Below are positions 7,131-26,986 of a stretch of 34,007 nucleotides of DNA, in pieces. Position numbers and translations under genes: made by a program. The notes beneath the pieces are model-generated. The model was not told the origin of the DNA and searched no databases. It saw only the letters and a program-made list of their open reading frames with translations. Origin of the DNA: a bacterium (lineage in GTDB: Bacteria; Hydrothermota; Tepidihabitantia; Tepidihabitantales; Tepidihabitantaceae); contig JAWOHG010000249.1 of assembly GCA_046485245.1 (NCBI GenBank), positions 1 through 34,007 of the forward strand. The letters are read 5' to 3'. Position 1 is the first letter of the stretch; each line of letters begins with the position of its first letter.

Positions 7131-7188
7131 TAAGCGGGCGATACATCGGTGAGGGTGGAGGCACAATGCGGATTGTCGCACCGGCAGT

Positions 7189-7217
7189 TTGACCAAAAGG
7201 GTGTTTTGGAGTATAAT
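7189..7217 (+). promoter_or_regulatory. Sigma70-type promoter for the large surface protein
   Basis: TTGACC-N17-TATAAT. Confidence 0.75.
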
Positions 7218-7310
7218 TATCGCGGGTGGATTGATGAGCTAGGACTGACCAACGTCCAGCCCGGTGTTACTGGTGAACCGGGCGGGGCGCAGGGACAAAA
7301 AGGAGCGCAC

Positions 7311-10300: not shown

Positions 10301-10376
10301 TCTTGCCGCCGGAGTCTATCCGGTCCGGCTCGAGGCCGGCGGTGCAGCAGCGACGGTCAAGCTCATCCTCAAGTAG
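7311..10376 (+). CDS. Large secreted/surface protein: signal peptide, DNRLRE-like domain, three CARDB/Ig-like repeats, Kelch-like propeller, T9SS-like CTD (1021 aa)
   Basis: AAAGGAG RBS then MLSLSSILVLSALLTAA. QAWMKFDLSAIP...APRMYVTY. Three DIGV...PxG...W..(K/R)CS...NDxx repeats. Six K(G/A)xxx..(F/L)..(Y/F) blades. SIAPNP...VLDVTGR...LAAGVYPVRL...KLILK. Confidence 0.85.
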   Translation: MLSLSSILVLSALLTAAPVGNEPVTASPLSLVGAAGATELPALRTAFSRTYDLHNGQYLAEVFPVNVNEQSPGGPWFPVDSDTTDSMFPAISDWWTGHVQSQNTVGTVKQNNDMYFRGGGAASHDKRQAWMKFDLSAIPDSGVLNATGLVYYCYSIDAAGGPTTFIRVVNVEPVQATAATLWTAITTGDSASSQASHGTGWVLRPLNTTGVTAVRTSLTRNWVCFGIHEPESDNSRWGHAYGYYPRSTAPRMYVTYTPPPPPPDIGVTALLAPTGSLDTGAMVVPRATWHNNHTAPYGFSAWFILTNPSNQRVYSELVSVSSLRAGADTTITFTGFNVGTASGTWTAKCSTFAFSDTNWRNDTLQRSFTVFPRHADIGVASIVQPAGTIDTGATVVPRAIFHNYHPLHPANFEAWFILTDPADQRQYSHSISVVGLAAGADTALNFPGYYFGQGIGQWIARCSIYCAIDTTPGNDIRQGTFTVTPWTVHSDIGVVQITAPTGCLDTSAPAQPAAIWKNYLTNATGFEAYMFVANPRGERIYTASTVVASLAAGAETTVVFPLFYIDTMQGQWSVRCSTYLTFDVDNSNDTLNSSFFVYFGGQVPAQPGWSEMEPMPVEPSGKSIKHGGWLAWMQSDSKLYAGKGNKTADFYSYDVATNRWERRAQIPSGLSGKLPAKGGYGCADGERYVYFTKGNNTAEFWRYDIAGDSWSQLADVPLGPSNKRVKGGNDMVFVHGTGDTGFVYLMKGQKTDFMRFNTGTGQWDILSSVPIMARPKVDRGSWLVYDGVDRIYAHKAKVHELWAYHVAADSWGAQLSAMPFTRYTPGKSKKAKDGSSAAWHDGGIYTLKGGNTVEFWRYHTDGDTWTGLDSMPSFGSTAKKRRVKEGADIAATGGDRFYALKGKNTRELWRYQNPWTFGAAPKPAPGGVAAAPTFAAVPSLSASIAPNPAMGGLTRLFYSLPVGGRARVTVLDVTGRIRQKYEFAANRNGAVQLNVAGLAAGVYPVRLEAGGAAATVKLILK

Positions 10377-11336: not shown

Positions 11337-13751
11337 GTGGGTGTCCTGCTTCTGCTGCTGGCGGCATACAGCAGCGACAACCAGCTCGACATCAACCGGG
11401 CCACGCTGGCGCAGGTGCGGGAGCTGCCGGTCGATTCGGCGACCGCCCGGCGCATCCACGAGCGGGTCGAGTTGTTCGGCCGCCTGAACAGCGTCTATGA
11501 CCTGTTGCGCGTGCCCGGCGTGACGCCCGAGAGATTCGCCGACATCAAGCCGCTCGTCTACGTGTCCCAAGTCGCGTGGGAGGACATCCGGCTGAACAAC
11601 ATCCAACGCATCCAGCGCCGGCTGGCGTCCGAGGAAGGGCCGACCGCGGCGGCGGTCGAGCAGTGGCAGGACCTGCTGTTGACCCCGATCAACGTCAACC
11701 GGGCGTCGATTGACGACCTGCTCGTGCTGGACAACGTCTCGCTGGTCGACGCCGTGTCGGTTGCCCGCTTCACGGGCGCGGGCGGCAAGCTCAGCGGTCG
11801 GCGCGACCTGGCCGGGCAGGTGCCCGGCCTGTCCTCGTACGGCTATCGCAGCATGAGGGACTTCGTCACGTACGAGGACGCCAAGGGTTTGGCGTTCGGA
11901 GGCAACTACCGGGCGAGCTACGAGGGCGACCCGAACTGGTTCACATCCGTCGGCACGACCGAATTCGACCAGGCGCTGGCCGTGCTCGAGACGGACACTG
12001 CCCAGTTCCGCGAGGGCGGGTACACGGCTGAAGAGGTCGAGTTCTTCCGAGGGCGTCTGCTCGCATCGCGCGAGTTCCGTGGCGCGATGACCAACGAGGC
12101 GAGCGCCCGGCACCGGCTGCGCGTGCGGGCCGGCGACTACGTGCGTGCGGGCGCCTGGGCCGTGCAGAAGCTGTACACCGACCGGACGATTGACGAGTAC
12201 AAGGTGTTCGCGTCGGCGCAGAACGTCGGGCCGGTGCGCAAGGCGGTCGTCGGCGACTACCGGCTGACCTTTGCCCAGGGGCTGCTGCTGGACAATAACT
12301 CCGAGCTGATGGCGCGGGTGCACGAGCGCACGGTCGGGTTGTACAGCGACATGTCGGAGAACCCGGGGTTCGGGTTCCGGGGCGGCGCAGCCGAGCTGGG
12401 CACGGGTCGGTTCGGCCTGGTCGGGTTCTATTCGCGCAGCAAGCGTGACGCCATCCTGAACCCGGACAGCTCGGTCAACTACTACATCGTCTCGACGCCG
12501 CGCTACCCGGTGTTCCGCAACAACCTGACCGAGTCAGACTTCGGCGGCAGCGCCCGCGTCGACCTGTCCTCGCTGGGCTTTTTGCCCGTGGGCACGCGGC
12601 TCGCCTTCAACGGGCTCGCCATCAGCTATGACCGGCCGTTCCGGCCGATGGCGCGCTACCTGGATTTGCCCGGCGACGCCGACACGCTTGACGACCCGAA
12701 TTACACGGCACTGGACACCGGCACGAGCCGGCTGTACTACGGGGCGGATTTCCGCACCGTCATCGAGAACGTCTCGCTGGAGGGCGAGCTGGCAATGAAG
12801 CCGGGCACGCAGGACGAGACCTGGCGTCGATACGTCCCGGCCAGCGCAACGCCCAAGGCCCTGGTGCTGAAGGGCCGGACCCAGTTCGACTACCTGTACG
12901 TGACGGCGATGTACCGGCGGTACGACGTCGGCTACGACAACCCCTACAACCGTGGCTTCTCGGAGCAGTCGCGGTTCGAGGACACGCCGCTGGAGAAGCC
13001 GTACCGGCTCATCGACCCGGCCTTCGCCGCCTTGCAGGAGTTCCCCATGCCCAAGGCCGAAGAGGGTTTCTTCGTCGACACGCGCTACCAGATCGGCCGC
13101 CAGGTGACGTTCACCCGCGTCTACCTCGACGCCTGGCGCAACCTGGCCTGGGGAGCGGACAATGTCCGGTTCCAGGGCGAGGTGGAGTACCAGCCGGTCT
13201 ACCCGCTGCGCCTGCGGTTCAAGCAGAAGCTGCAGTCGAAGGAACTGCCCAAGCTGGCCGAGGCGACGCGCTCGTTCACCACCGAGACGTCGATCCGGGC
13301 GATGGCGAGCCTGACGAACTGGGATTACCTGACGGGTGAGGTCCGGCTGGGCAAGGTGCTGCTCACGCCGACCCTGCGCTACACCGACCAGTCGAGCATG
13401 TCGGGCGACTTCGTGGCGGTGCAGTGGGAACACAACTTCTCGGACGACCTGCACGGCGAACTGGGCATCGCCGCCTGGCTCACGCGCGGCATGTCGCAGT
13501 GGGCGTTCGAGGACGACGGGATAGACTTTCTCGACGGGCAGGGGCTGCGCTGGTATGCCGCCGTGTCCGACCGCATCTCGGACAACCTGCTGGTGTATTT
13601 CAAGGTCCGGCACAAGGTGAGCGAGTACCCGCACACCGGGCTCGGCGCGGGCGAGGGCCTGCACTACCGCGGCAGCACCGAGCCGGTGCGCGATTTCGTG
13701 ACCCGCGAGGAGGGCCTGACGATGGCCCTGCAGATAGACCTGCTCTGGTAG
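11337..13751 (+). CDS. Helix-hairpin-helix (ComEA-like) domain protein fused to a predicted outer-membrane beta-barrel
   Basis: LDINRATLAQVRELP...YDLLRVPGV and PINVNRASIDDLLVLDNVS...QVPGLS are two HhH_3-type modules. VVGDYRLTFAQGL and many amphipathic strands follow. Terminal aromatic residue (LQIDLLW). Confidence 0.8.
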   Translation: MGVLLLLLAAYSSDNQLDINRATLAQVRELPVDSATARRIHERVELFGRLNSVYDLLRVPGVTPERFADIKPLVYVSQVAWEDIRLNNIQRIQRRLASEEGPTAAAVEQWQDLLLTPINVNRASIDDLLVLDNVSLVDAVSVARFTGAGGKLSGRRDLAGQVPGLSSYGYRSMRDFVTYEDAKGLAFGGNYRASYEGDPNWFTSVGTTEFDQALAVLETDTAQFREGGYTAEEVEFFRGRLLASREFRGAMTNEASARHRLRVRAGDYVRAGAWAVQKLYTDRTIDEYKVFASAQNVGPVRKAVVGDYRLTFAQGLLLDNNSELMARVHERTVGLYSDMSENPGFGFRGGAAELGTGRFGLVGFYSRSKRDAILNPDSSVNYYIVSTPRYPVFRNNLTESDFGGSARVDLSSLGFLPVGTRLAFNGLAISYDRPFRPMARYLDLPGDADTLDDPNYTALDTGTSRLYYGADFRTVIENVSLEGELAMKPGTQDETWRRYVPASATPKALVLKGRTQFDYLYVTAMYRRYDVGYDNPYNRGFSEQSRFEDTPLEKPYRLIDPAFAALQEFPMPKAEEGFFVDTRYQIGRQVTFTRVYLDAWRNLAWGADNVRFQGEVEYQPVYPLRLRFKQKLQSKELPKLAEATRSFTTETSIRAMASLTNWDYLTGEVRLGKVLLTPTLRYTDQSSMSGDFVAVQWEHNFSDDLHGELGIAAWLTRGMSQWAFEDDGIDFLDGQGLRWYAAVSDRISDNLLVYFKVRHKVSEYPHTGLGAGEGLHYRGSTEPVRDFVTREEGLTMALQIDLLW

Positions 13752-13766
13752 AGGAGAGAACAGACG

Positions 13767-14927
13767 ATGAACTTCAAGAGAGTTGCAGTCTGCCTGGCGC
13801 TCGCGGCGAGCGCCGGCCTGGCCCAGTTGCCGGTGCGCGACTACTGGGGCGAGGAAGTCCGGTTCGCCTCGGCGCGGACCCTGGCCGCGGTCGGCACGAC
13901 CCTGCACGAGTCGAAGCCGGCCGCGCTCTTCGGCAACCCGGCGCTTTTGTGGACCGGTAACCGGGTCGCGTTCGAGCTGACTTACGGCCTGCGGGTGAGC
14001 GCCGAGCAGCGGACCCGCATCGTCTACGACAACTTCGAGAACGCGGTCGGCGAGATAGCGTTCGCGGACAACTACGGCGCGAGCGGCCTTGCCGGCCCGA
14101 TGGCAGTGGCCGGCCGGCTCGGACCGGTAACGGTCGGCGCCGGCGCGACGCCGGTGCGCGACTTCGACTACCGGTACCTCAAGGAGTACCGCGACGACTT
14201 CTACGTGAAGATCGGTGAGGACCGGGTGAGCCAGACCGGCAACCTGTACGCGGCGGGCGCGGGCGCGGCCTGGCGCCCGTTCGACTGGCTCGGCGTCGGC
14301 GCGGCAGGCAGTTACGCCTTCGGCACGCGCCGGCTGGAAGCCTGGTACATCGACGGTTACGACACCATCCATTCGCTGGAGGCCGGCAAGCCGGCGGGCC
14401 TCGGGTATTCATTCGGCCTGGCCGGCCGGCCGATGGACCGGCTGTCCCTGGCCGCCGATTTCCGCGGGCCGACCGAGCTGGCCGACTGGCGCAGCGGCGA
14501 CAGCGTCCTTGCGGCCGAGTCGCGCACGCTCCCGGCCTCGGGCGGGCTGTCGCTGGCTTACCGCGCGCCGGGCAGCCTGCCGTCCACGGTCACGGCCGAG
14601 GGGCGCTACGCGCTCTGGTCCGCAGCCGACTCGACCTACAAGAACACGCTCCAGTTGCGGGCCGGGGTCGAGCACACGCTGCTCAATCTCGTCCGCCTGC
14701 GCTACGGTTTCGGAGTCGAACCGCTGGCCGCCAACCCGTCGGTGCAAGCCGTGGATGTCGGTCTCGGCGTCGGCTTCGATGCCGGCGTCGCACAGATCGA
14801 CGTCGGCCTGATGCACGCGCGCAGCATCATCGGTCCGGGCGATTTCACGGTGCCACTGGCCGGGGATGACGTGAAGGTCTATGAAAACCGCACGGCGATT
14901 GCCGTCACATTCAGCCGTGGCTTCTAG
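13767..14927 (+). CDS. FadL-like outer-membrane beta-barrel protein
   Basis: GAGGAG RBS. Signal peptide MNFKRVAVCLALAASAGLA. SARTLAAVG...ALFGNPALL motif, LRAGVEH, LRYGF, terminal Phe (VTFSRGF). Confidence 0.75.
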   Translation: MNFKRVAVCLALAASAGLAQLPVRDYWGEEVRFASARTLAAVGTTLHESKPAALFGNPALLWTGNRVAFELTYGLRVSAEQRTRIVYDNFENAVGEIAFADNYGASGLAGPMAVAGRLGPVTVGAGATPVRDFDYRYLKEYRDDFYVKIGEDRVSQTGNLYAAGAGAAWRPFDWLGVGAAGSYAFGTRRLEAWYIDGYDTIHSLEAGKPAGLGYSFGLAGRPMDRLSLAADFRGPTELADWRSGDSVLAAESRTLPASGGLSLAYRAPGSLPSTVTAEGRYALWSAADSTYKNTLQLRAGVEHTLLNLVRLRYGFGVEPLAANPSVQAVDVGLGVGFDAGVAQIDVGLMHARSIIGPGDFTVPLAGDDVKVYENRTAIAVTFSRGF

Positions 14928-16431
14928 GCTGCTGCTGACTCTGCTGGTCGCGGCCTTGCCGGCCGGGGCTGCAATCCAGCATCTCTACATCGTCCACACC
15001 AACGACATCCACGGCGCGCTCCTCCCCGGCGAGGCGTTCTGGATGAACCGCAACTTCCCGCCCCCGCTGGCCAATGCGCCCGGCGCGCTGACGGTCATCC
15101 GCGACCTGCGCGAGGAAGCGGCGAGCAAGGGCTATGGCTTCCTGCTGCTCGACGGCGGGGACGTGTTCAAGGGCGAGCCGATCGGCGACTTTACCAGGGG
15201 GCAGGCGGTAATCGACTACTTCGAGCGGGCCGGGTACGATGCGGTGGCGGTCGGCAACCACGATTTCGACTTCGGCTGGCCCGTGCTCAAGGCGATGGCG
15301 GACAGCTCGAGCATGCCGTGGATATGCTCGAACGCGAAGGTCACGGGAACCGACACCGCCCCCGGCTTCCTGCGGTCGAGCGCGGTGTTCGAGCGCGGCG
15401 GGCTGAAGGTCGGCGTGTTCGGCGTCATCACCAAGTACCTCAGCGGCATGGTCAGCGACTCGGCGCGCGGCGACCTCGACATCCTGCCCTACGAGGACGT
15501 CGTGCGGCGCGAGCTGGCGGAACTGCGGCGGCAGGGCGCCGACATCACAGTCGCGCTGAACCACGTCGGTCACCGGCACGACCAGCGGCTGGCCGATTCG
15601 ATCCGCGGCATCGACGTCATCGTCGGGTCGCACAGCCACACCGGCGTGCGGCCACCCTACGAGGCCCCGTCCAGCCATACGATCATCCAGCAGGCGTACA
15701 GCAAGCTGACGTCGGTCGGGTTCCTTGACATCAGCTTCGACACCGAGACCCGCCAGGTCGTCGGCTACGAGGGCAAGCTGATCGACCTGCAGGGCGAGGC
15801 CATACCCAAGGATTACGAGTACCTCGCGCAGCTTGACTCGGTGCGTGTCATCGCCGAGCAGGGCTATGACGAGGTCCTCGGCTACTCGAAGCGTGAGCTG
15901 ACCCGCGGCGGTGCCGCCGAGAACCCGGCCGGCAACCTCATTACCGACGCCCTGCGCGAGGAGTTCGGCGCCGACATCGCATTCCATAACTCGGCCGGCA
16001 TCCGGGCCAACATCCCGGAGGGCGAGGTCACGTACCGGGATGTTTACAAGGTGGACATCTTCAACAACACGGCGGTCGTCGGGTTGTTCACCGGGCGGCA
16101 GATACGCGAGATATGCGAGGTGTCGATCAACGGACACCACGCGATATTCCAGGTTTCGGGCATGAAGATGGTCTACACCCAGGCGAAGCCCATCGGCCAG
16201 CGGGTGATTTCCGTCGAAGTCAACGGCGCACCGCTGGAGCCGGACCGCAAGTACAAGGTCGTCACCAATTCGTTCCTCGCCTCGGGCACGGGCGAGTACG
16301 GCGTGTTCACCGAGGGCGAAGACATCGAGGATTCCTACCTGCCCCTGCGGGACGTCATCGCCCGCTACATCCGGCGCCACTCGCCGGTCGATGCCCGCGT
16401 CGAGGGGCGCATAGTGCTCGTCGACCGCTAG
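14917..16431 (+). CDS. Secreted bifunctional 5'-nucleotidase/UDP-sugar hydrolase (UshA family)
   Basis: GTG start overlaps the upstream stop. Signal peptide. HTNDIHG, DGGD, GNHDFD, GSHSH; C-domain GNLITDA, NSAGIRA, QVSG, VTNSFLASG. Confidence 0.92.
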   Translation: MASRLLLTLLVAALPAGAAIQHLYIVHTNDIHGALLPGEAFWMNRNFPPPLANAPGALTVIRDLREEAASKGYGFLLLDGGDVFKGEPIGDFTRGQAVIDYFERAGYDAVAVGNHDFDFGWPVLKAMADSSSMPWICSNAKVTGTDTAPGFLRSSAVFERGGLKVGVFGVITKYLSGMVSDSARGDLDILPYEDVVRRELAELRRQGADITVALNHVGHRHDQRLADSIRGIDVIVGSHSHTGVRPPYEAPSSHTIIQQAYSKLTSVGFLDISFDTETRQVVGYEGKLIDLQGEAIPKDYEYLAQLDSVRVIAEQGYDEVLGYSKRELTRGGAAENPAGNLITDALREEFGADIAFHNSAGIRANIPEGEVTYRDVYKVDIFNNTAVVGLFTGRQIREICEVSINGHHAIFQVSGMKMVYTQAKPIGQRVISVEVNGAPLEPDRKYKVVTNSFLASGTGEYGVFTEGEDIEDSYLPLRDVIARYIRRHSPVDARVEGRIVLVDR

Positions 16432-16433
16432 CC

Positions 16434-18053
16434 TTGACCGTGTGGCCGCTACACCCGGCTGACGAATCGGCCGTTGCCGCCCTGGCGCATGACTGCGGCC
16501 TCGCGCCGCAGGTCGCGCGCGTCCTCTGGCTGCGCGGCGTGCGAAACGCAGCCGCGGCCGAGGAATGGCTCAACCCGTCGCTCGCGCAGCTGCACGCGCC
16601 CGCGCTGCTGCCCGACTTCGCCGCCGCCGCCGAGCGCATCCACGCAGCGATACGCCGGCACGAGGCGGTCCTCGTCTGGGGACACGATGACCTCGATGGG
16701 ATGACCGCGACCGCGATACTGGTCCGGCTGTTCCGCCACCTGCGCCTGCCCACCCGGCACTACATCCCGGCCAAGGGCCGCGAGCGTCACGGGCTGAACG
16801 CCGAAGTGGCACGCGCAATCCTGCCCGGCCCGGGCGGCCTGGTGGTCACGGTCGACTGCGGCATTACCAACTCAAGACAGGTCGAGGAATTGCGTGCCGC
16901 CGGCATCGATACGGTCGTGACCGACCACCACGAGGTCGTGGGCGACCTGCCCGCAGCTGCGGCCAACGTCGATGCGAAACGGGTCGACTCGCGCTACCCG
17001 TACCGCGGCCTGGCCGCGGCCGGAATCGCCCTGAAGGTGGGGATGGGCATCGTCGAGGCCGAGGTTGGGCTGACGCCGCGGCATCTCCTCTCGGTGCTGC
17101 CCGAGTTGGTCGCGCTGGCCGTGCTGGGCACCATCGCCGACCGGGTGCCGCTGACCGGCGAGAACCGGTCGCTAGTGGCCGGCGGGCTGCCCCTGCTCGA
17201 GGAGTGCCGCCTGCCCGCGGTGAGCGCGGTGCTCGCGCGACTGCGCAAGGAGGCGGGCCGGCTCACCGTCGCCCGGTTCGTCGCGGAGTTGCTGCCGCTG
17301 TTCGCCGCGGCCAACGGCAATGACGGCGTGCAGAAGCTGCTCGATGCGACCCCGGCCGAGGCGGCGGTGTGGGTCGACGAACTGGCGGTGAGGCGGCAGG
17401 AGTGGCGTGGCGAGGTCGAGCGGTCGTACGAGGTCGCCGAGCGGGTGATGAGCGCCGGCGACGGCATCGTCTTCGCCCGCAGCCGCGAGTTCTCGCTGCG
17501 CGCGCTCGGCTCGTGCGCCGGGAGGCTCAAGGACCGCCTGCAGGTGCCGGCGATACTGCTCGGGTGGCGCGGGGACGCGTGGGTCGGGGAGGGGCGGGGG
17601 ATGGAGACCGCCAGCCTCATCGACCTGCTCAAGGCCCACGCCGGGTACTTCATCGACTATGGCGGGCACCGCAAGGCCGGCGGGTTCACCATCGCGGACG
17701 AGCGGGTCGAGGAGTTCGTGGTCAGCGCCGAGCGCTACGCGCACGAGCACTTCGCCGGCCGCATCAAGCGCGAGGACACGCAGAGCGCGGACGCGGTCCT
17801 GCCCCTGGCCGAGCTGACCGATGTCGTCCGGCGGCTCGGGCCGTTCGGCGACGGCAACCCGCAGCCGGTGTTTCTGTCCGGGCCGACCGAACTGAGGTTG
17901 GCCGGCCACCTGCGCTACGCGGCGGAGCGGCCGGACATCGAACTGCGGCCGGCCCGCGCCGGGGTCGCACTGGAGCCGGGTTTGCCGCTGGAACTCGTTT
18001 ACACGGTCGATGACCTGGGCCGGGTGGGCGTGCTCGACAGCCGCCCGGCCTGA
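16434..18053 (+). CDS. recJ: RecJ-like DHH/DHHA1 single-stranded DNA exonuclease (divergent)
   Basis: Probable TTG start 2 nt after the upstream stop. VARVLWLRG, LHAPALLPD, WGHDDLDG, TVDCGI, TDHH, LGTIADRVPLTGENR, GGHRKAGGF, PFGDGNPQPVF. Confidence 0.8.
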   Translation: MTVWPLHPADESAVAALAHDCGLAPQVARVLWLRGVRNAAAAEEWLNPSLAQLHAPALLPDFAAAAERIHAAIRRHEAVLVWGHDDLDGMTATAILVRLFRHLRLPTRHYIPAKGRERHGLNAEVARAILPGPGGLVVTVDCGITNSRQVEELRAAGIDTVVTDHHEVVGDLPAAAANVDAKRVDSRYPYRGLAAAGIALKVGMGIVEAEVGLTPRHLLSVLPELVALAVLGTIADRVPLTGENRSLVAGGLPLLEECRLPAVSAVLARLRKEAGRLTVARFVAELLPLFAAANGNDGVQKLLDATPAEAAVWVDELAVRRQEWRGEVERSYEVAERVMSAGDGIVFARSREFSLRALGSCAGRLKDRLQVPAILLGWRGDAWVGEGRGMETASLIDLLKAHAGYFIDYGGHRKAGGFTIADERVEEFVVSAERYAHEHFAGRIKREDTQSADAVLPLAELTDVVRRLGPFGDGNPQPVFLSGPTELRLAGHLRYAAERPDIELRPARAGVALEPGLPLELVYTVDDLGRVGVLDSRPA

Positions 18054-19317: not shown

Positions 19318-20646
19318 CTAGCGGGTCAGCCGGGGTGACCAGGCCGGGGAGTAGGCGCCGGCGGTGTTGGTGATGCGTCGCACGTTCGTCCCGTTCCAGT
19401 CCATCGTGTAAATCTCGTAGCGGCCCGAGCGGTCCGAGCTGAAGGCGAGGTGCAGGCCGTCGGGCGACCAGCACGGGTCCTCGTTGTTGCGCCCGCTGGT
19501 CAGCCGCGTGTACGTGTCACCGCTGAGGTTGGTGATGCAGACCTGGTTCGAGCCGTTGGGCTGGCGCTGGACAAAGGCGATAAGGTCGCCGCGCGGCGAC
19601 CAGGCCGGCGACGTGTTGTAGCTGCCCTCGAAGGTCAACCGTCGCAGGTCGGTGCCGTCGACGTTGGCGACGTAGACCTGGGGTGCGCCGGTGCGGTCGG
19701 ACACGAACGCGAGCTGGCGGCCGTTGGGGGACCAGGACGGCGATATCTCGATGGCACGGCTGGAGGTGACACGGCGCAGGTTGCGGCCGTCGGCATCCAC
19801 CACGTACAGCTCGGACTGGCCCTCGAAGCTCATCGACAACGCGACCGTGCGGCCGTCGGGCGAGAACGCGGCGGTCGTGTTCAGGCCGTTGCGCTCGCTC
19901 AGTGCCCGCACCTTGCGCGAGGCGATGTCCATCACGTAGGCGTTGAGCGAGAGTGCCCCGTAGGCCGAGTAGGCGATGCGGCCGCCGTCAGGGGACCAGT
20001 CGGGGTAGAGCTTGAGCCCGCCGGTCGTGGTCAGGCGGCCGACGTTGTGGCCGTCGTAGTCGACCCAGGCCAGCTCCTTGCTGTCCTTGTCCAGCCGCAG
20101 GGAGAAGGCGATGCGGGTGCGGCTGACGCCCTCTTCACCCGTGAGCTGGGTGATGATTTCGTCGGCGATACGGTGGCCGAGCCAGCGCAGGTTGCCGTCG
20201 ATGTTGTAGGTCTTGCTCGCGATGCGCCGACCGGCGACGATGTCGTGCAGCCCGATTTCGAGGGCCTGGGCCGAGCGTCGAGCGGCGACGCGGCCGGACA
20301 GGAGTACCTCGGCGCCGGTCGTGGACCAGCCCTTGTAGTCGGGCTTGTCCGGGCCGGGCGCGAAGGTCCACGATTTGCCCGGTTCCGGTTCCTCGAAGGT
20401 GAAGTAGAGCGAGAAGCGGAGGTCGTCGGCGATTATCTCGCGCAGGCTGTCGGCGCGGGCCCTGCTGCCGCCCTGGGCGGTCGTGAACGGCGCGATGACG
20501 AGGTCGAGCTTCTTGCGGCCGCTGGACGCGGTGAGCCTGAGCCAGAGCTCGTCGGCGGGTATCTCGGCGCTGGGTTGGGTCGTGTCGGGCGCCTGGGCCG
20601 GGGCCGCGCCCAGTGCAACCACAAGGAGCAGGACGACGTGGCGCAC
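19318..20646 (-). CDS. tolB: TolB-like periplasmic beta-propeller protein
   Basis: Signal peptide. TolB N-domain (IIADDLRFS, HRIADEII..LTGEEG..TRIAF, DYDGHN). PD40 repeats PDWSPDG, SPSWSPNG, SPAWSPRG, PCWSPDG, SPAWSP. Confidence 0.88.
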   Translation of the reverse strand: MRHVVLLLVVALGAAPAQAPDTTQPSAEIPADELWLRLTASSGRKKLDLVIAPFTTAQGGSRARADSLREIIADDLRFSLYFTFEEPEPGKSWTFAPGPDKPDYKGWSTTGAEVLLSGRVAARRSAQALEIGLHDIVAGRRIASKTYNIDGNLRWLGHRIADEIITQLTGEEGVSRTRIAFSLRLDKDSKELAWVDYDGHNVGRLTTTGGLKLYPDWSPDGGRIAYSAYGALSLNAYVMDIASRKVRALSERNGLNTTAAFSPDGRTVALSMSFEGQSELYVVDADGRNLRRVTSSRAIEISPSWSPNGRQLAFVSDRTGAPQVYVANVDGTDLRRLTFEGSYNTSPAWSPRGDLIAFVQRQPNGSNQVCITNLSGDTYTRLTSGRNNEDPCWSPDGLHLAFSSDRSGRYEIYTMDWNGTNVRRITNTAGAYSPAWSPRLTR

Positions 20647-20650
20647 GCGG

Positions 20651-21277
20651 CTAAGGGATGACCGCCAGCCAGTCGTGCAGGAGGAAATAGAAGCGGCCGA
20701 TGAGCAGGGAGATGCGGGCCATCACCGTGTATCCGAACGACGCCCCGAAGGCAATCATTATGAAGACGATGCCGACCCGCGAGGTGGCGCCGAGCGCGCC
20801 CTTGTGCTCGCGCGAGAAGTAGAAGTAGATCAGCGTCGAGATGACGCCGACGTAGAGAACGATGTTGTTGACCGTCACCAGCGGGCGCAGGGTGGCCGAT
20901 ATCTGGGGGAGCAGGTAGCCCTGCACCGACGCGACCAGGCCGAGCCCGGACCCGATGCCGATGGTGAAGGCGATGGGCCAGCGCGACACCCAGGCCAGCT
21001 TGGGCACGGACCGGGCGAGCATCAAGAGGCCGAGGAAGGCCGGCACCGCGAGAATCCAGGCCTCGACGTAGTTGCGGGAGGCCAGGTTGTTGCGGAAGGC
21101 CTCGATGAGCATCGGGTAGACGTCGAACGACCAAGCGTAGATGACCGCGAACCCGGCCGAGATGCCGACGTAGATGTGCTCGGCCGCCTTGTAGAGCGGG
21201 TTGTCCTTGTACAGGAACGAGAGGATGGCGATGGTCAGCGTGGCCGCGACCCAGGTGCCGATGACGTTGAGAATCAC
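20651..21277 (-). CDS. Uncharacterised multi-pass membrane protein (about 6 TM)
   Basis: Hydrophobic throughout. SFLYKDNPLYKAAEHIYVG and MIAFGASFGYTVMARIS look like family motifs. GTGA overlap with the upstream gene. Confidence 0.85.
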   Translation of the reverse strand: MILNVIGTWVAATLTIAILSFLYKDNPLYKAAEHIYVGISAGFAVIYAWSFDVYPMLIEAFRNNLASRNYVEAWILAVPAFLGLLMLARSVPKLAWVSRWPIAFTIGIGSGLGLVASVQGYLLPQISATLRPLVTVNNIVLYVGVISTLIYFYFSREHKGALGATSRVGIVFIMIAFGASFGYTVMARISLLIGRFYFLLHDWLAVIP

Positions 21278-22104
21278 GGTTTGCCCTTCCGGCCGCGAGA
21301 GAGCAGGAACCCGATGTTGCCGATGACCAGCAGGACGATGATGAGGCCGTGGGCCGAGGACTGGGCCGGCATCCCGAGCGAGGCCGAGCCCGGCTGGCCG
21401 ATGAGCGCCTCGTATTCCGAAGCGCCCTGCAAACCGCCGATGAGGCCCTTGATCTGGCCGGCCTGCAGGTACTGGTACATGTTGGGTGCGTTCACGCCGG
21501 TGACGCCGGCGATGATGGGCTGGTTGAAGCGGCCGCCGACGAACTGTATCCAGGCGTCGGCCACCGCGCCGTGCGCGAGCGTGACCAGCAGGCCGATGTC
21601 ACGGTAGGTGTGGACCGAGCGCATGAACTCGAAGCTGTCGATGGGCACGCCGCGGTAGTCGGTGCGGAAGAAGTCGCGGATTTCCCGGCCGATGCCGACC
21701 ATCATCGCCGAGTAGCCGGGCCGGTACCCGATGTTGACGTAGTCGGTGCCGTAGACCTTGCCGTACTCGGGCGGCACCTGGTTGAGCGCAATCTCGGCCA
21801 GGGGCAGGCCGAGCGCGAGCTGGCCGGTGACGATGACCTTGAGGTCCTTGGAGAAGCAGTGGCGCAGGATGGCCAAAAGCATCGGCTGGACCTCGGGCGC
21901 CGAGGAGGGGTCGTAGTCGATGGAGATCATCACGACCGACCCGGCGGGCAGTTCGTCCACGGTGCGGTACGCGCTGCGCACCGGCTCGGACACGCGCACC
22001 GGGGTCTTGGGCCGGAGGATGAGCGGCAGGGCGACCGACAGGGCCAGCAGCACGTAGAGGATGCGGCGGTCGACCCCGGCCAGCAGTTCCCAGAACCTCG
22101 TCAC
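21274..22104 (-). CDS. Uncharacterised membrane-anchored protein (N- and C-terminal TM, soluble alpha/beta core)
   Basis: VDRRILYVLLALSVALPL, YGTDYVNIGYRPG, YLQAGQIKGLIGGLQGASEYE, QSSAHGLIIVLLVIGNI. GTGA overlaps on both sides. Confidence 0.85.
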   Translation of the reverse strand: MTRFWELLAGVDRRILYVLLALSVALPLILRPKTPVRVSEPVRSAYRTVDELPAGSVVMISIDYDPSSAPEVQPMLLAILRHCFSKDLKVIVTGQLALGLPLAEIALNQVPPEYGKVYGTDYVNIGYRPGYSAMMVGIGREIRDFFRTDYRGVPIDSFEFMRSVHTYRDIGLLVTLAHGAVADAWIQFVGGRFNQPIIAGVTGVNAPNMYQYLQAGQIKGLIGGLQGASEYEALIGQPGSASLGMPAQSSAHGLIIVLLVIGNIGFLLSRGRKGKP

Positions 22105-22802
22105 GACATGTACGTCCGTTCGATGCCGAGGATGATGCGCAGGGACATTGCGATGCCGCCCAGCGCGATGCCCAGCCCGATGCCGCGGCCGGCCGCGGCC
22201 TGGGGCACCGACATCAGCCAGTCCTTCACCGCGGCGAAGCCCTCCCAGGCCGCGATGCGTTCAAAGCCGATGCCGGGCGCGACCAGGTGGATGATGCCGG
22301 CGACGCCGCGCCAGAGCGCGCCGCCCAGCGGGACGTTGCCGACCATCACCAGCACTGCGGCGACCAGGAGCAGCGTCGCGGCGAAGTTGCGCACGCGGAA
22401 CGCCCGGTACGCGGCCGAGACGATGAAGAAGGCGAGGCTGGCGAACATCGTCGACTGGAGCGGGATGATCATGTAGGTGTAGAGCCACATGAACGGCGCC
22501 TGGAGCGCGAAGGGACTGCGGAACCGGACCCACGAGTACAGGCCGAGCGCAATGGTCGCGAAGAGGCTGAGAATCAAGAGCAGGCTGTAGCCCCAGCCGC
22601 CGACGCGGCGGAACACTCTCGTCAGGTGGTGCCGGGTGAGCGAGTCCAGGCCCAGCAGGAACGTGAACCCCGAGATGATGGCGTACCAGTTCAGGAACCG
22701 CGCCTCGAGGTCGCCGAACGGCCGGTGCGGGATGAAGAAGGTGACGATGATGAGCAGCGCGGTGACGAAGACGATGACCAGCGGCAGCGTGCGCTTGAAC
22801 AT
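22101..22802 (-). CDS. Uncharacterised multi-pass membrane protein (about 6 TM)
   Basis: Hydrophobic segments. PLQSTMFASLAFFIVSAAYRAFRVR and RGIGLGIALGGIAMSLRIILGIER. TGATG overlap with the upstream gene. Confidence 0.85.
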   Translation of the reverse strand: MFKRTLPLVIVFVTALLIIVTFFIPHRPFGDLEARFLNWYAIISGFTFLLGLDSLTRHHLTRVFRRVGGWGYSLLLILSLFATIALGLYSWVRFRSPFALQAPFMWLYTYMIIPLQSTMFASLAFFIVSAAYRAFRVRNFAATLLLVAAVLVMVGNVPLGGALWRGVAGIIHLVAPGIGFERIAAWEGFAAVKDWLMSVPQAAAGRGIGLGIALGGIAMSLRIILGIERTYMS

Positions 22803-23953
22803 CAGTAGGCCGGGGTGAGCCAGCTGGCCAGGGTGTCAACGACCGTTTGCAGGGCCGGCGACTTGACGATGCTTGCCGCCGTGCCGAGGCCGGCGATGAT
22901 TAGCGTGATGACGACCAGCGTTATCTTGAGCAGGTCCTCGCCCTTGAGGCTGCCGAGCATTATCGGCTCGGGCTTGAGGTAGCAGGACGCGGCGAAAATC
23001 TCCTCGCCGATCATCGTGTAGTCGCAGGCCGCCACGAAGAACGGCAGCTGGGTCGTCTCGGTCGTGCCGGCAATCTGGATGGCGCCGACCGAGTGGCCGG
23101 TCTCGGCCATGATGAGCGACTCGGCGTAGAAGTAGCCGAGCCAGAAAATCGCGCCCGGCTTGTCGCGCACTATGATGCCGTCGACGCCCGCGGCATAGCC
23201 GAACTGGTCCGACGTCAGGAACGATACGTTGTCGGCGTTGTAGAAATCGGGCCGGCCCGCCTCGGTGTAGGCTTCCTTGACCGTTTCCTGCGCCGCGGTC
23301 ATGACGATGGGGTCGGAGTTGGGCACGATGAGCCGGGTCGAGTACTCGGCCGACTTGGCCGCTATCTTGCGTAACAGCGGCAGGGCGGCGATGACCGGCA
23401 GGTCGGTGATGTAGCCGAGGCCGAAGCTGAACAGGATCGGCCGACCCATCTCGGTGGCGCGGCCGAGCGCGTCGTCGATGGCGTCGAGCCCGGCAATCTT
23501 GCGCACGAACATCTTCGCGCCGCGGCGGGCGCGGATGAAGTAGACGATGAACACGGCGCAGATGATGACCAGCGCGACCAGGACGTTGAGTTGCGGCGTG
23601 CGGAACCACTGGGCGCTGGACTTGACCGGGCCGGCCGGTTCCGCGGCGGCCGAGTCGGCAGGGTAGAGCGCCACGACGCGGTAGTAGTAGGGCGTGTTGT
23701 CGCGGGTGTCGCCGTCCTGGTATTCAAGCGACGTGGCCGGTTCGAGGCTGACCTCGACGAAGCCCGAGTCGGGCGAGGTCGAGCGCAGCACGCGATAGCC
23801 GGAGGGCGCGACCGACTCGGCGGCCGGCGCGGTCCAGGTCACGTTGATTGCGCGGCCGGCGTCGTTGGGCGCGTCCAGTACCGTCACCGCACCGGGTGGG
23901 GCGAACGAGAGCAGCAGCGCGGCCAAGGCGGATGTGAGGGAGATGCCAGCCAA
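22802..23953 (-). CDS. Fibronectin type III domain + DUF6754-like membrane protein
   Basis: Signal peptide. DAPNDAG..INVTW...GYRVLRS...YYYRVVA is Fn3-like. TM, then RKIAGLDAIDDALGRATEMGRPI, FYAESLIMAETG, QLPFFVAACDYTMIGEEIFAASCYL. The DUF6754 name is from memory of the family. Confidence 0.8.
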   Translation of the reverse strand: MAGISLTSALAALLLSFAPPGAVTVLDAPNDAGRAINVTWTAPAAESVAPSGYRVLRSTSPDSGFVEVSLEPATSLEYQDGDTRDNTPYYYRVVALYPADSAAAEPAGPVKSSAQWFRTPQLNVLVALVIICAVFIVYFIRARRGAKMFVRKIAGLDAIDDALGRATEMGRPILFSFGLGYITDLPVIAALPLLRKIAAKSAEYSTRLIVPNSDPIVMTAAQETVKEAYTEAGRPDFYNADNVSFLTSDQFGYAAGVDGIIVRDKPGAIFWLGYFYAESLIMAETGHSVGAIQIAGTTETTQLPFFVAACDYTMIGEEIFAASCYLKPEPIMLGSLKGEDLLKITLVVITLIIAGLGTAASIVKSPALQTVVDTLASWLTPAY

Positions 23954-23959
23954 GGACTG

Positions 23960-23987
23960 AGCATAACCGTGGGCCGGTCGAAGTCAA
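23960..23987 (-). promoter_or_regulatory. Sigma70-type promoter for the Fn3/DUF6754 operon, possibly leaderless
   Basis: TTGACT-N16-TATGCT. The -10 box ends 6 nt before the TTG at 23953 and there is no RBS. Confidence 0.55.
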
Positions 23988-24049: not shown

Positions 24050-25339
24050 TTGAACCGCTCTCGCTTCAAGTTCGGCCCGCGGCTGCTCCAGCTGTACTTC
24101 ATCGCCGGACTCCTGGTCCTGGCAGGAGTCTGGTTCTTTTACTCCCAGGTCGTGCTCCTCCGCCTGTCCAAGCTCTGGGATAACTACGCCCGCACGCTCT
24201 CGGCCGAACTGGAGAGCGACACCCAGCTTCGCTCGCGGCTGTACGCCAAGTTCATGAGCCGGGCGACCGAGCCGTCCGAGTCCGGCTCGCCCGAACTCGA
24301 CATCATCTTCGAAGAGGTCATCAAGAAGCTCGACTTCCCGGTCGTCATCACCGACGCGGCCGGGGTCCCCTCGTCGCACCGTAACCTGCCGGTCGAGGAC
24401 CCGGACTCGGCCCAGCTCTGCGCCATCGTCGTCGCGCTGGACTCCGAGCACGCGCCGGTGCCGCTGTCGGTCACCGACGGCGACTCGGTGCGCCACCTCG
24501 GCGAAATCCACTACGGCGTGTCGGCCTCGACCCTGATCCTGCGCCGCATCAACGCCGACCTCGCATCCTCGGTCCGGTCGGTGCGGCTGTTCTCGGTGTT
24601 CCAGCTCCTGCTGCTGGTCGGGTTCATCATCGTCGGGGTTTGGGGCATACTCGCCTACAAGCGGCGCGAGCAGGAGCACATCTGGACCGCGCTGGCCAAG
24701 GAGACCGCCCACCAGATGGCGACCCCGCTGTCCTCGTTCGCGGCCTGGCTCGACCTCATCCGGGCCAAGGGCGGCGGCGAGGTGGTCGACGAGATGGAGA
24801 ACGACCTCGGCCGGATGCGGGTCATCCTCGACCGGTTCAGCCGCATCGGCCTGCCGCCCGAGCTGGCGCCCCAGCGGCTCGGCGCGGCCATCGAGCGGTC
24901 GGTCGCCTTCGTCAAGCGCCGCTCGCCCAGGACCGTGCGCTTCGCGGTCGAACTGACCGCCGACGAGCCGGTGCGGGTCGACGAGGTGCTGTTCACCTGG
25001 ATGCTGGAGAACCTGCTGCGCAACTCGGTCGACGCCATCGGGTCGCGCGGCGGCGAGGTGCGGGTGCGCACCGCGCTCACCCCGGACCGGCGCCAGCTCG
25101 AAATCGAGGTCACCGACTCGGGCGAGGGCGTGAAGCTCGACCGCCTGTTCGAGCCGGGCGTGACCACCAAGAAGCACGGCTGGGGCGTGGGCCTGACCCT
25201 GGCCAAGCGCATCGTCGAGAGCTACCACGCGGGCAGTCTCATCCTGAAAGAGACCCGGCCGGGCCGCACCGTGTTCTCCATCTACCTGCCGCTTGCGGCA
25301 GGCGAGCCAGTTCAGCAAGTGACAAGGACAAAGGACTAA
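24050..25339 (+). CDS. Membrane sensor histidine kinase (2 TM)
   Basis: H-box WTALAKETAHQMATPLSS, N-box ENLLRNSVDA, G1 DSGEG, TTKKHGWGVGL. Confidence 0.92.
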   Translation: MNRSRFKFGPRLLQLYFIAGLLVLAGVWFFYSQVVLLRLSKLWDNYARTLSAELESDTQLRSRLYAKFMSRATEPSESGSPELDIIFEEVIKKLDFPVVITDAAGVPSSHRNLPVEDPDSAQLCAIVVALDSEHAPVPLSVTDGDSVRHLGEIHYGVSASTLILRRINADLASSVRSVRLFSVFQLLLLVGFIIVGVWGILAYKRREQEHIWTALAKETAHQMATPLSSFAAWLDLIRAKGGGEVVDEMENDLGRMRVILDRFSRIGLPPELAPQRLGAAIERSVAFVKRRSPRTVRFAVELTADEPVRVDEVLFTWMLENLLRNSVDAIGSRGGEVRVRTALTPDRRQLEIEVTDSGEGVKLDRLFEPGVTTKKHGWGVGLTLAKRIVESYHAGSLILKETRPGRTVFSIYLPLAAGEPVQQVTRTKD

Positions 25340-25477: not shown

Positions 25478-26986
25478 TTGAGGATTCTCTGGATTGACGA
25501 CGAAATCGATATGTTCCGGCCGTTCATCTACGCGCTCAAGGACAAGGGCTACGAGGTCGAGACCGCGACCAACGGCCCGGACGGCATCGAACTGCAGAAG
25601 ACGCGCGACTTCGACCTGGTCCTGCTCGACGAGATAATGACCGGGATGGACGGGCTGGAGGTGCTGTCGCGCCTGAAGGCGGCCGACCCCAACCTGCAGG
25701 TCGCGATGGTCACCAAGTCGGACGAAGAAGTGCTCATCAACGAGGCCTACGGCAAGCTCGTCGACGACTTCATCATCAAGCCGTTCACGCCGGTCCAGCT
25801 CCTGGCCGTGGTCAAGCGCCTGCTGGAGAAACAGAAGATAGTGGGCGGGCGCATCGGCACCGAGTACATGACCGCGTCGGGCCGGGACCGCGACGCGCGC
25901 GACTGGCCGGGCTGGATCACGGTCTACCGCAGCATCCTGCACTGGCAGCGCCTGCTCGGCCGGTACGGCGACGCGGGGCTGCAGGACGTGCAGGCCGACC
26001 GGCGGCGCGAGGCCAACGAGCAGTTCTGCCGCTACGTCGAGGAGAACTACCGCGACTGGCTGGCGGGCAAGGGGCCGGTGATGTCCAACCGGTTCATGGA
26101 GACCTTTGTCCGGCCGCAGTGGGAACAGGCGCCGACGTACCTCGTGATATTCGACTCGATGCGGCTGGACCAGTGGGACGCGCTCGTGCCGCTGCTGCGC
26201 GACTACTTCTCAATCGACACGCAGGAGTACTGCGCGATACTGCCGACCGCGACGCCCTACGCCCGCAACGCCATCTTCAGCGGGATGCTGCCCCACGAAA
26301 TCTGGCGGCGCTATCCCAAGTACTGGGTGTTCGAGGAGACCGGCCAGAACCGCCACGAGGCCCAACTGCTCGACGGCCTGCTCGAACGCCTGCGGTTCGG
26401 CGGCCGCTCGGCCTACGTCAAGATTGCCCACGGCGACGAGCTCGAAGGGGCGCGTTCCACCCTGCTGGACCGCGGCGTCCGGTTCACGGCCGTGGTCATC
26501 AACTTCCTCGACCTGCTCATCCACGCGGTGCGCCAGACGCGCCTGCTCGACGAGATAGTGCCGGACGACGCGGCGCTCGTGGGCCTGACGCGGGTCTGGT
26601 TCGCCTCCTCGCCGGTGTTCGAGTTTCTCAAGACCCTGGCGCGGCGCGGGGCCCGCGTTGTCATCACCTCGGACCACGGCTTCATCCGCGTGCGCCGGCC
26701 CACGCTCATCTACGGCTCCCGTGAGATATCGGCCAACCTGCGCTACAAGTACGGCCCGGCCCTGCGGGCCGAGGAGCGCGAGGCGGTCGTGCTCAACCGG
26801 CCCGAGGACTGGCAGTTGCCCATCGAGATGCCCACCAGCAAGTTCGCCATCGCCAAGTCCGACCACTACTTCATCTACCCGACCAAGCCGCGCGAGTACG
26901 AGAAGACCTACAAGTACACGCTCCAGCACGGCGGGTTGTCGATGGAGGAGATGATAGTGCCGGTGGCGACGCTGCGGCCCCGCTAG
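25478..26986 (+). CDS. porX: PorX-family response regulator (receiver + PglZ/alkaline-phosphatase-superfamily domain)
   Basis: AAGGAGGT RBS and TTG start. ILWIDDEID, LLDEIM, MVTKSDEE, KPF. PglZ motifs DSMRLDQW, LPTATPYARNAIFSG, SDHG, QHGGLSMEEM. Confidence 0.88.
   Translation: MRILWIDDEIDMFRPFIYALKDKGYEVETATNGPDGIELQKTRDFDLVLLDEIMTGMDGLEVLSRLKAADPNLQVAMVTKSDEEVLINEAYGKLVDDFIIKPFTPVQLLAVVKRLLEKQKIVGGRIGTEYMTASGRDRDARDWPGWITVYRSILHWQRLLGRYGDAGLQDVQADRRREANEQFCRYVEENYRDWLAGKGPVMSNRFMETFVRPQWEQAPTYLVIFDSMRLDQWDALVPLLRDYFSIDTQEYCAILPTATPYARNAIFSGMLPHEIWRRYPKYWVFEETGQNRHEAQLLDGLLERLRFGGRSAYVKIAHGDELEGARSTLLDRGVRFTAVVINFLDLLIHAVRQTRLLDEIVPDDAALVGLTRVWFASSPVFEFLKTLARRGARVVITSDHGFIRVRRPTLIYGSREISANLRYKYGPALRAEEREAVVLNRPEDWQLPIEMPTSKFAIAKSDHYFIYPTKPREYEKTYKYTLQHGGLSMEEMIVPVATLRPR

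Follow-up and report, generated by a model that had tools for sequence, protein, structure and literature searches.

Contig JAWOHG010000249.1 from a bacterium of the Hydrothermota, analysed here over positions 1–34,007 (the window), carries four consecutive genes, A, B, C and D (Table 1), which a first-pass annotation had described as a membrane module joined by TGATG/GTGA overlaps. The open reading frames (ORFs) and the sequence itself confirm this layout: A and B have one nucleotide in common in the junction TGATG, and the B/C and C/D junctions are both 4-nt overlaps of the form GTGA. Hydropathy agrees with the accompanying description of two proteins with about six transmembrane (TM) segments and two with TM-flanked soluble cores. 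B and D have 6–7 hydrophobic segments each, with 6 in each of the paralogs encoded in the same genome, and in A and C the TM segments flank a soluble part. Protein A is a full-length member of Pfam family DUF6754 (PF20539; E 6.3e-108, 360.2 bits vs a cut-off of 27, profile positions 2–243 of 257), an entry that covers A only and names no function, and none of B, C and D has a match in Pfam or NCBIfam. No paper on DUF6754/PF20539, nor on PF13941 or GlmL as an ASKHA protein, was found in the open-access and bioRxiv literature, a search that could miss a paper in a subscription journal. Judged by their sequences, the window genes are one copy of a widespread set of four predicted inner-membrane proteins, whose presence in genomes tracks that of a separately encoded actin-fold ATPase.

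Table 1. Features of the module and its surroundings. Positions refer to the whole stretch (JAWOHG010000249.1, 34,007 nt); genes A–D all lie on the minus strand.
Feature	Positions	Strand	Description
Gene A	22802-23953	-	TTG start, 383 aa; predicted signal peptide, Fn3, TM helix, DUF6754 core, TM helix, short amphipathic helix
A residues 20-112, exported Fn3	23618-23896	-	PDB profile, Foldseek and VIA matches
A residues 119-143, TM helix 1	23525-23599	-	Model helix; basic stretch RARRGAKMFVRK after it
A residues 144-332, Rossmann-like alpha/beta DUF6754 core	22958-23524	-	Core-only AF2 model
A residues 333-363, long C-terminal TM helix	22865-22957	-	Model helix 330-363; hydropathy peak 341-357
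Gene B	22101-22802	-	ATG start, 233 aa; polytopic, 6-7 hydrophobic segments
Gene C	21274-22104	-	GTG start, 276 aa; TM helix, ~210-aa soluble domain, TM helix, basic tail
Gene D	20651-21277	-	GTG start, 208 aa; polytopic, 6-7 hydrophobic segments
tolB	19318-20646	-	442 aa; TIGR02800, 350.5 bits vs cut-off 343
Sigma-70-like promoter match	23960-23987	-	TTGACT, 16 nt, TATGCT; ends 7 nt before the TTG of A; consensus match only
Histidine kinase gene	24050-25339	+	Divergent from the module
Response_reg-PglZ protein gene	25478-26986	+	Divergent from the module
Kelch-repeat protein gene	7149-10376	+	1075 aa; weak type IX secretion sorting domain
Run of nucleic-acid-related genes	11337-18053	+	804-aa protein, 5'-nucleotidase/metallophosphatase, DHH (RecJ-like) protein

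The four genes are inherited together. A one-genome-per-species scan confirmed at least 601 A relatives, and the study of gene order and neighbours used 78 loci. Among the A genes with at least 2400 nt of sequence downstream, a count that leaves out 19 further genes too near a contig end, 81 of 83 are followed by B, C and D in this order on the same strand, the exceptions being a solo A (locus L102) and an A–B pair (L086). The A-B-C-D cluster is thus a real conserved module, far beyond chance. The genome of the window holds a second set on contig C88 (L003, 9087–13739), which has the same order and is likewise tightly packed, with 45, 39, 36 and 40% identity for A, B, C and D; the nearest related loci stand at 64–70% identity. 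Tandem arrays of two, three or more modules are common (for example L071, L076, L088, L075, L097 and L104). The first-pass annotation had mentioned similar unannotated clusters from several uncultured anaerobic lineages, and such clusters do occur across many uncultured phyla, in records titled WOR-3, Stahlbacteria, Zixibacteria, Edwardsbacteria, Eisenbacteria, Fermentibacteria and relatives, Coatesbacteria and Poribacteria, as well as in single metagenome-assembled genome (MAG) records titled Ignavibacteria, Planctomycetota or Bacillota. A search of 1.84 billion representative clusters with a profile of the A core brings up 2147 at E ≤ 0.001, of which 908 reach E ≤ 1e-30. Within the phylum of the window, DUF6754 is present in 185 of 201 sampled genomes, with 1–7 matches per genome.

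Clustering of all neighbours in the 78 loci brought out two proteins as the most frequent companions of the module, namely a protein of ~600–610 aa that matches PF13941 with E values of about 1e-125 to 1e-127 and an unnamed protein of 375 aa. PF13941 is the MutL/GlmL family of ASKHA (actin-fold) ATPases. When all ORFs are counted, the ATPase and the 375-aa partner are each found in 17 of the 78 loci and a small protein of ~105–160 aa in 11, and no neighbour other than this ATPase set is constant among the 78 loci. The usual arrangement, on one strand, is small protein, ATPase, partner and A-B-C-D, and divergent or downstream placements also occur. The partner is itself extremely conserved: 16 of its sequences, drawn from several phyla, show a mean column identity of 64%. 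Of these 16 members, 11 have weak barrel-sandwich matches (Biotin_lipoyl, RnfC_N and NQRA_N), with a best E of 2e-5 and all below the curated cut-offs, and a profile search of the PDB gave no relative below E 0.06.

The same components are encoded in the genome of the window, apart from the module. The ATPase lies on contig C340 (416 bits), in a row with gcvPB and a 105-aa small protein (L120, 7692–11213, minus strand), and the partner lies on C102 (E 7e-122, 53% identity), so that cassette, PF13941 ATPase and 375-aa partner are all present. On C116, a 933-aa ORF (L121, 3005–5806, minus strand) fuses a paralog of the PF13941 ATPase (326 bits) to a partner-like part with weak RnfC_N/NQRA_N matches; this ORF is a natural fusion of two proteins that are usually separate neighbours. 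The order gcvP, small protein and ATPase seen in the window genome has a parallel in seven loci of other phyla, in which gcvP genes likewise precede the ATPase set.

Presence and absence across genomes extend this association beyond the linked loci. PF13941 is found in 180 of the 201 genomes of the phylum; 179 hold both module and ATPase and 15 lack both, and the discordant genomes comprise 6 with the module alone and 1, which is 77% complete, with the ATPase alone. A second small phylum (that of genome G201) gave 9 genomes with both, 1 with neither and 2 discordant among 12, and strong PF13941 matches were present in all five carriers whose loci bear different record titles, such as Zixibacteria and Poribacteria. 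In a 6.3-Mb Poribacteria chromosome the PF13941 gene is unlinked to the module. Most genomes have one PF13941 match, vs up to seven for DUF6754, figures that are numbers of matches and not of gene copies. The presence of the module therefore tracks a GlmL/MutL-type ASKHA ATPase in a near-constant fashion. The first-pass statement that no ATPase, Fe–S or heme motif is present agrees with a pattern scan of A–D, which found no Walker A, CxxC or CxxCH motif.

The AF2 (AlphaFold2) model of protein A, built from a 95-sequence alignment, has a mean pLDDT of 93.4 and consists of a short N-terminal hydrophobic helix, a beta sandwich (residues 21–112), a helix (119–143), an alpha/beta domain (154–326) and a long helix (330–363). 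The exported Fn3 domain proposed in the first-pass annotation is recovered by PDB profile, model and VIA search alike: the sandwich matches titin and other Fn3 domains in the PDB profile search (best E 1.7e-14), gives a Foldseek E of 2.7e-7 and reaches a VIA Z of 14.4 with a contactin Fn3 domain. Fn3 domains are also the only PDB profile matches of A, and they fill the Foldseek and VIA lists for the whole model. The positive-inside rule provides a basis for assigning the sides of the membrane. Because the Fn3 domain follows a signal-like segment and the first TM helix precedes the basic stretch RARRGAKMFVRK, the core of A probably faces the cytoplasm.

Folded alone (residues 144–332), the A core gives a six-strand alpha/beta fold with a pLDDT of 91.6 and a pTM of 0.89. 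Foldseek found no PDB match at E ≤ 1e-3, the best being a molybdenum-cofactor carrier protein (1.5e-3) and the MthK RCK domain (2.4e-3). An independent VIA comparison with 48,161 chains returned a flat list, in which Z falls from 10.1 to only 8.4 over 50 rows and which includes Sir2, short-chain dehydrogenases, GT-B half-domains, methyltransferases, RCK/KTN domains and transhydrogenase domain III. The modelled core is accordingly Rossmann-like and nothing more specific, and no family can be named for it. No glycine-rich dinucleotide loop (GxGxxG) follows strand 1 when read from the alignment. Conservation of this domain is extreme, with 33 of 189 columns invariant in 95 sequences and nearly every segment of exactly equal length, almost without insertions or deletions. 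With a mean pairwise identity of 65%, the A core is better conserved than any other part of the module; D stands at 48%, B at 47%, the soluble domain of C at 41% and Fn3, the least conserved part of A, at 30%. The invariant residues of the core include E168, E278, E284, D311, E317, E318 and T297, and C310 is nearly invariant.

The other three subunits were compared through family alignments of 90 B, 84 C and 80 D sequences, next to the 95 of A. All six charged motifs that had been picked out near the TM segments (AEH, MAR, YRAFR, GIER, GEE and EYE) are present and fall on invariant or nearly invariant columns, which comprise E33 and R188 of D, R133 and E228/R229 of B, G316-E317-E318 of A and Y231/E232 of C. 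In B the conserved motif SAAYRAFR stands after the fourth hydrophobic segment. Pfam scans of the individual members at E ≤ 1 gave TMD0_ABC in 25 of 90 B sequences (best E 1e-4) and DUF3704 in 29 of 80 D sequences (best E 4e-3), both of which are hydrophobic noise. For C, a profile search found no PDB relative, and the ESM Atlas gives unnamed clusters only. Since C starts with a conserved DRR and ends, past its second TM segment, in the basic tail SRGRKGKP, its soluble domain is read under the positive-inside rule as probably periplasmic. A cytoplasmic N-terminus of C fits the only longer relative found (P0001, a single hit of 1316 aa), which carries an N-terminal zinc ribbon and ~1000 residues of low-complexity, proline- and glutamate-rich sequence before the first TM helix. 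A complex prediction for A (residues 113–383) with B, C and D gave scores of 0.66, 0.66 and 0.61 with A as partner, vs 0.00 and 0.00 in the controls in which A was replaced and 0.70 in the control in which C was replaced, and it counts neither way.

The first-pass annotation had arranged the four proteins as a 2+2 set and asked whether C is a paralog of the core of A. Read as a paralogy of A with C and of B with D, this arrangement found no support in profile–profile comparison. The hhalign probability for A and C was 1.9% when 16 sequences represented A and 2.2% when 95 did, and the alignment was limited to a TM helix and the basic tail; for B and D the probability was 0.8%. A weak BLASTP match does connect the C protein of the own-genome paralog with A (E 8.6e-4 over 97 aa). 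By sequence pattern, the soluble parts of A and C both look alpha/beta, and the two may be very distantly related.

What varies between copies of the module lies on its presumed outer side. In the best 150 A representatives the core is always near the C-terminus, and the part that precedes it ranges from ~60 to more than 1000 residues. The 47 representatives of at least 700 aa carry a PQQ_2/BamB-like propeller in 13 cases, Fn3 in 3 and nothing recognisable in 31. B acquires FG-GAP repeats in relatives from two Zixibacteria-type loci and in a single hit among the longer sequences. Among 75 long D relatives, 15 have an HHH_3 domain of the ComEA type, all above the cut-off, 3 others have an EF-hand and 57 have nothing named; a CheB-methylesterase-like domain is present in 3 of the 15 with HHH_3. 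The aligned D inserts (HHH_3 with or without the CheB-like domain, and EF-hand) all enter at one loop, between residues 132 and 133 of the window's D, and the own-genome paralog of D has 37 extra residues at the same place; this loop probably faces outward. All four subunits present variable parts outside, and the cytoplasmic face is held constant. The earlier idea of Fn3 as a swappable sensor is therefore upheld as far as the swapping of outer domains is concerned (propellers or Fn3 in A, FG-GAP in B, HhH, EF-hand and CheB-like domains in D). As a side observation, the units with HhH domains among the D relatives (P0211–P0227) are possible binders of extracellular DNA.

In this lineage the module seems to be expressed together with a gene of the cell envelope. 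The start of tolB lies 4 nt past the stop of D, and a consensus scan of the stretch from the A start to the tolB end found no terminator-like site. The transcription unit is likely to be A-B-C-D-tolB, one gene longer than the span first annotated, which stopped at 20651. The consensus scan gave two promoter-like sites vs 0.4 expected. One precedes A so closely that a very short leader, or another start for A, is a possibility, and the other, a mirror-image TTGACT/TATGCT match within the 96-nt intergenic spacer, faces the divergent kinase gene. Short metatranscriptome contigs from two runs of one study match A, B, C and D in part at 97–99% identity, and parts of tolB were matched too; one of them spans the B/C junction (21895–22150, 3 differences), and another, from a 92%-alike relative, spans D/tolB. 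As DNA carry-over is possible in these libraries, the contigs are only a hint of expression. A genome-wide profile search found this tolB to be the sole TIGR02800 match above the cut-off. It has apparently left any tolQRA cluster for the operon of the module, and the three MotA/ExbB/TolQ-type (PF01618) genes of the genome are on three other contigs. Other genes come after the module elsewhere. Three Fermentibacteria-type loci have a TonB-dependent receptor and ExbB/ExbD there, and in four WOR-3 loci (L048, L055, L056 and L059) the module is followed by DUF4388 (PATAN-like), four unnamed genes (~220, 195, 120 and 116 aa), ExbB and one or two ExbD.

Several known systems share features with the module, and none accounts for it. 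GlmL/MutL is an accessory ASKHA protein of coenzyme-B12 glutamate mutase operons. The module-tracking ATPase falls in the same family, PF13941, but it is ~600 aa long vs a profile of 450 positions, and it is flanked by the small protein, the partner or membrane modules and not by mutase genes. ECF S-components and the ABC permeases served by MsiK each share one ATPase. They provide a working analogy, in that several diverged membrane units, each with a constant cytoplasmic and a variable outer face, would depend on the one ATPase set of their genome. However, A–D have no ABC ATPase, Walker A motif, EcfT/S or ABC permease family, and the module-linked ATPase has an actin fold; neither ABC_tran nor a permease family was found in A–D, and no ABC gene occurs among the flanking ORFs. 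With Na+-NQR and Rnf the module has in common two subunits of ~6 TM segments, TM-anchored soluble subunits and a partner with weak RnfC_N/NqrA_N matches. Unlike NqrD and NqrE, B and D are not paralogs, and A–D lack Fe–S and flavin-attachment motifs; no Rnf/Nqr family appeared among the 25 families listed per B/D scan, and C has no FMN_bind match. RCK/KTN domains and transhydrogenase domain III resemble the A core as Rossmann-like domains held at a membrane (VIA Z of 8.5–8.9 to KtrC, TrkA-N, MthK RCK and domain III). Their scores are no better than those of dozens of unrelated Rossmann folds, at 4–13% identity and with no glycine loop in the alignment, and the Foldseek TM-scores with MthK RCK are 0.41/0.36. 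Tol-Pal is brought to mind by tolB in the likely transcription unit of this lineage, but A–D match no TolQ/TolR/TolA family, and the tolB linkage is confined to the window and two close loci. Neither PF01618 nor PF02472 was found in A–D, which sets them apart from motors of the MotA/ExbB-TolQ and ExbD/TolR kind. A match to a characterised transporter family, which would have contradicted the first-pass annotation, was looked for with Pfam, NCBIfam, PDB profile and member scans, and none turned up.

We tentatively favour, while stopping short of calling it probable, the reading that A–D form a substrate-specific inner-membrane unit of an undescribed machine driven by a shared actin-fold ATPase set. 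Each complex would hold one copy each of A, B, C and D. Its engine would be the GlmL/MutL-type ASKHA ATPase with the 375-aa NqrA/RnfC_N-like partner and the ~105–160-aa small protein, all encoded elsewhere in the genome. The path through the membrane would be formed by B and D together with the four TM helices of A and C, and the outer loops of B and D, together with the Fn3 domain of A and the C soluble domain, would face the periplasm and bind ligands. The ATPase set may dock on the Rossmann-like core of A, and ATP turnover would then power the passage of the ligand through the inner membrane. In a genome with several diverged modules, all could be served by one ATPase in the fashion of ECF or MsiK systems, and in this lineage the module would be transcribed with tolB. 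A bolder and rather doubtful extension would make A–D the membrane half of a new class of primary translocators with an ASKHA engine, distinct from ABC, P-type, V/F-type and AAA+ systems. A single ATPase set would work for several A-B-C-D units, whose cargo would depend on the swapped outer domains (Fn3 and propellers, EF-hand, and ComEA-like HhH, the last pointing to DNA or nucleotides in some units), and in this lineage co-transcription with tolB would tie one unit to Tol-Pal.

A number of observations weigh against the idea of an ATPase-driven transport unit. Transport itself is inferred, and B and D resemble no known transporter family in the Pfam member scans. To our knowledge, the proteins of the GlmL-type ASKHA kind that have been described assist enzymes as accessory proteins and are not transport motors. 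The ATPase set adjoins the module in just 17 of the 78 loci and is unlinked in the window genome. The 15 double-negative genomes all belong to one genus and amount to about one loss event, and 7 of the 201 genomes are discordant. The modelled A core has no specific fold relative, and its docking role is a guess. The outer domains (Fn3, propellers and FG-GAP) are of scaffolding or adhesion types, none of them a classical solute-binding fold, and tolB, Wzi and BamB-like propellers fit envelope assembly equally well.

The last point leads to the alternative that survives best, although we consider it unlikely: a machine for envelope maintenance or assembly that moves no solute, but anchors or energises periplasmic and outer-membrane partners (TolB, Wzi, beta-propellers and TonB-dependent receptors) as a trans-envelope tether or force transducer beside Tol-Pal. 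Much of the gene neighbourhood speaks for it. As in the window, where the genome's only TolB above the cut-off follows D, tolB comes after D in the two nearest loci of sufficient length (L034 and L037). A Wzi-like gene (capsule assembly, outer membrane) directly follows the second module of the own genome, where it runs off contig C88, and also follows the module of L070. ExbB lies in the flanks of 8 of the 78 loci. The BamB-like propellers fused to A and the FG-GAP repeats in B would suit such a machine as well. Yet the recurrent neighbours (ExbB, GcvP in 7 of the loci, DUF4388 in 4, LplA in 3 and TonB-dependent receptors in 3) are all lineage-bound; each envelope gene is confined to a few related loci and none is constant, whereas the constant partner is a cytoplasmic ATPase set. 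In addition, the carrier MAG titled Bacillota would have no outer membrane.

The possibly ion-driven transporter of the first-pass annotation, taken here as a self-contained secondary transporter or channel built of the pseudo-symmetric pairs A/C and B/D, is quite unlikely. The module operon does lack an ATPase of its own, invariant charged residues do lie in or near membrane segments (E33 and R188 of D, R133 of B), and in 6 of the 201 genomes the module occurs with no PF13941 gene detected. These observations are set against the missing paralogy within both pairs, the lack of a match to any secondary-transporter family, a best-conserved part that is a cytoplasmic soluble domain, and a distribution that tracks the ATPase; positive evidence for an ion drive did not emerge.

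Very unlikely, in our estimate, is a membrane-bound enzyme with a catalytic or nucleotide-binding A core, acting for example on a lipid-linked or envelope substrate, for which B, C and D would serve as the membrane scaffold. The extreme conservation of the core with its invariant acidic and polar residues would suit an enzyme, and its fold matches at Z 8.6–10.1 include GT-B half-domains (MurG, LpxB and WaaC), Sir2, short-chain dehydrogenase enzymes and methyltransferases. But no family stands out in this flat list, Foldseek returns nothing at E ≤ 1e-3, the glycine-rich dinucleotide loop is missing after strand 1, and several diverged copies with swapped outer domains would be unusual for a housekeeping enzyme. 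Least likely of all is a trans-membrane signalling device, in which outer domains sense ligands and the A core relays to cytoplasmic partners, perhaps the kinase and Response_reg-PglZ regulator that diverge from the intergenic region of the module: variable outer domains, a CheW gene downstream of the module in L063 and the CheB-like insert in three D relatives hint at it, but the kinase/regulator pair is neither upstream in the closest loci L034, L036 and L037 nor among the recurrent neighbour clusters, and at least 12 TM segments in four subunits exceed what signalling usually needs.

The remaining genes of note in the window lie farther from the module or face away from it. The PglZ output domain of the divergent response regulator is alkaline-phosphatase-like. 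The 1075-aa Kelch-repeat protein has a weak match to a type IX secretion C-terminal sorting domain (25.4 bits vs a cut-off of 27), which hints at a type IX secretion system. The 804-aa protein, which has an N-terminal ComEA-like HHH_3 domain, is encoded together with the 5'-nucleotidase/metallophosphatase and the DHH protein 3–9 kb from the module.

The module is a near-universal gene set in one uncultured phylum, is also present in many others and is under strong constraint, and three of its four proteins have no family name. Whatever its mechanism, it offers a well-defined, testable target: its four subunits and their partner set are known, the key domain has been modelled with confidence, and the domain swaps seen in nature give hints about ligands. 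If an ATP-driven machine with an actin-fold engine is indeed at work, the module would represent a new class among the few designs for energy coupling at membranes, and it would help to explain how small-genome, uncultured heterotrophs deal with their surroundings.

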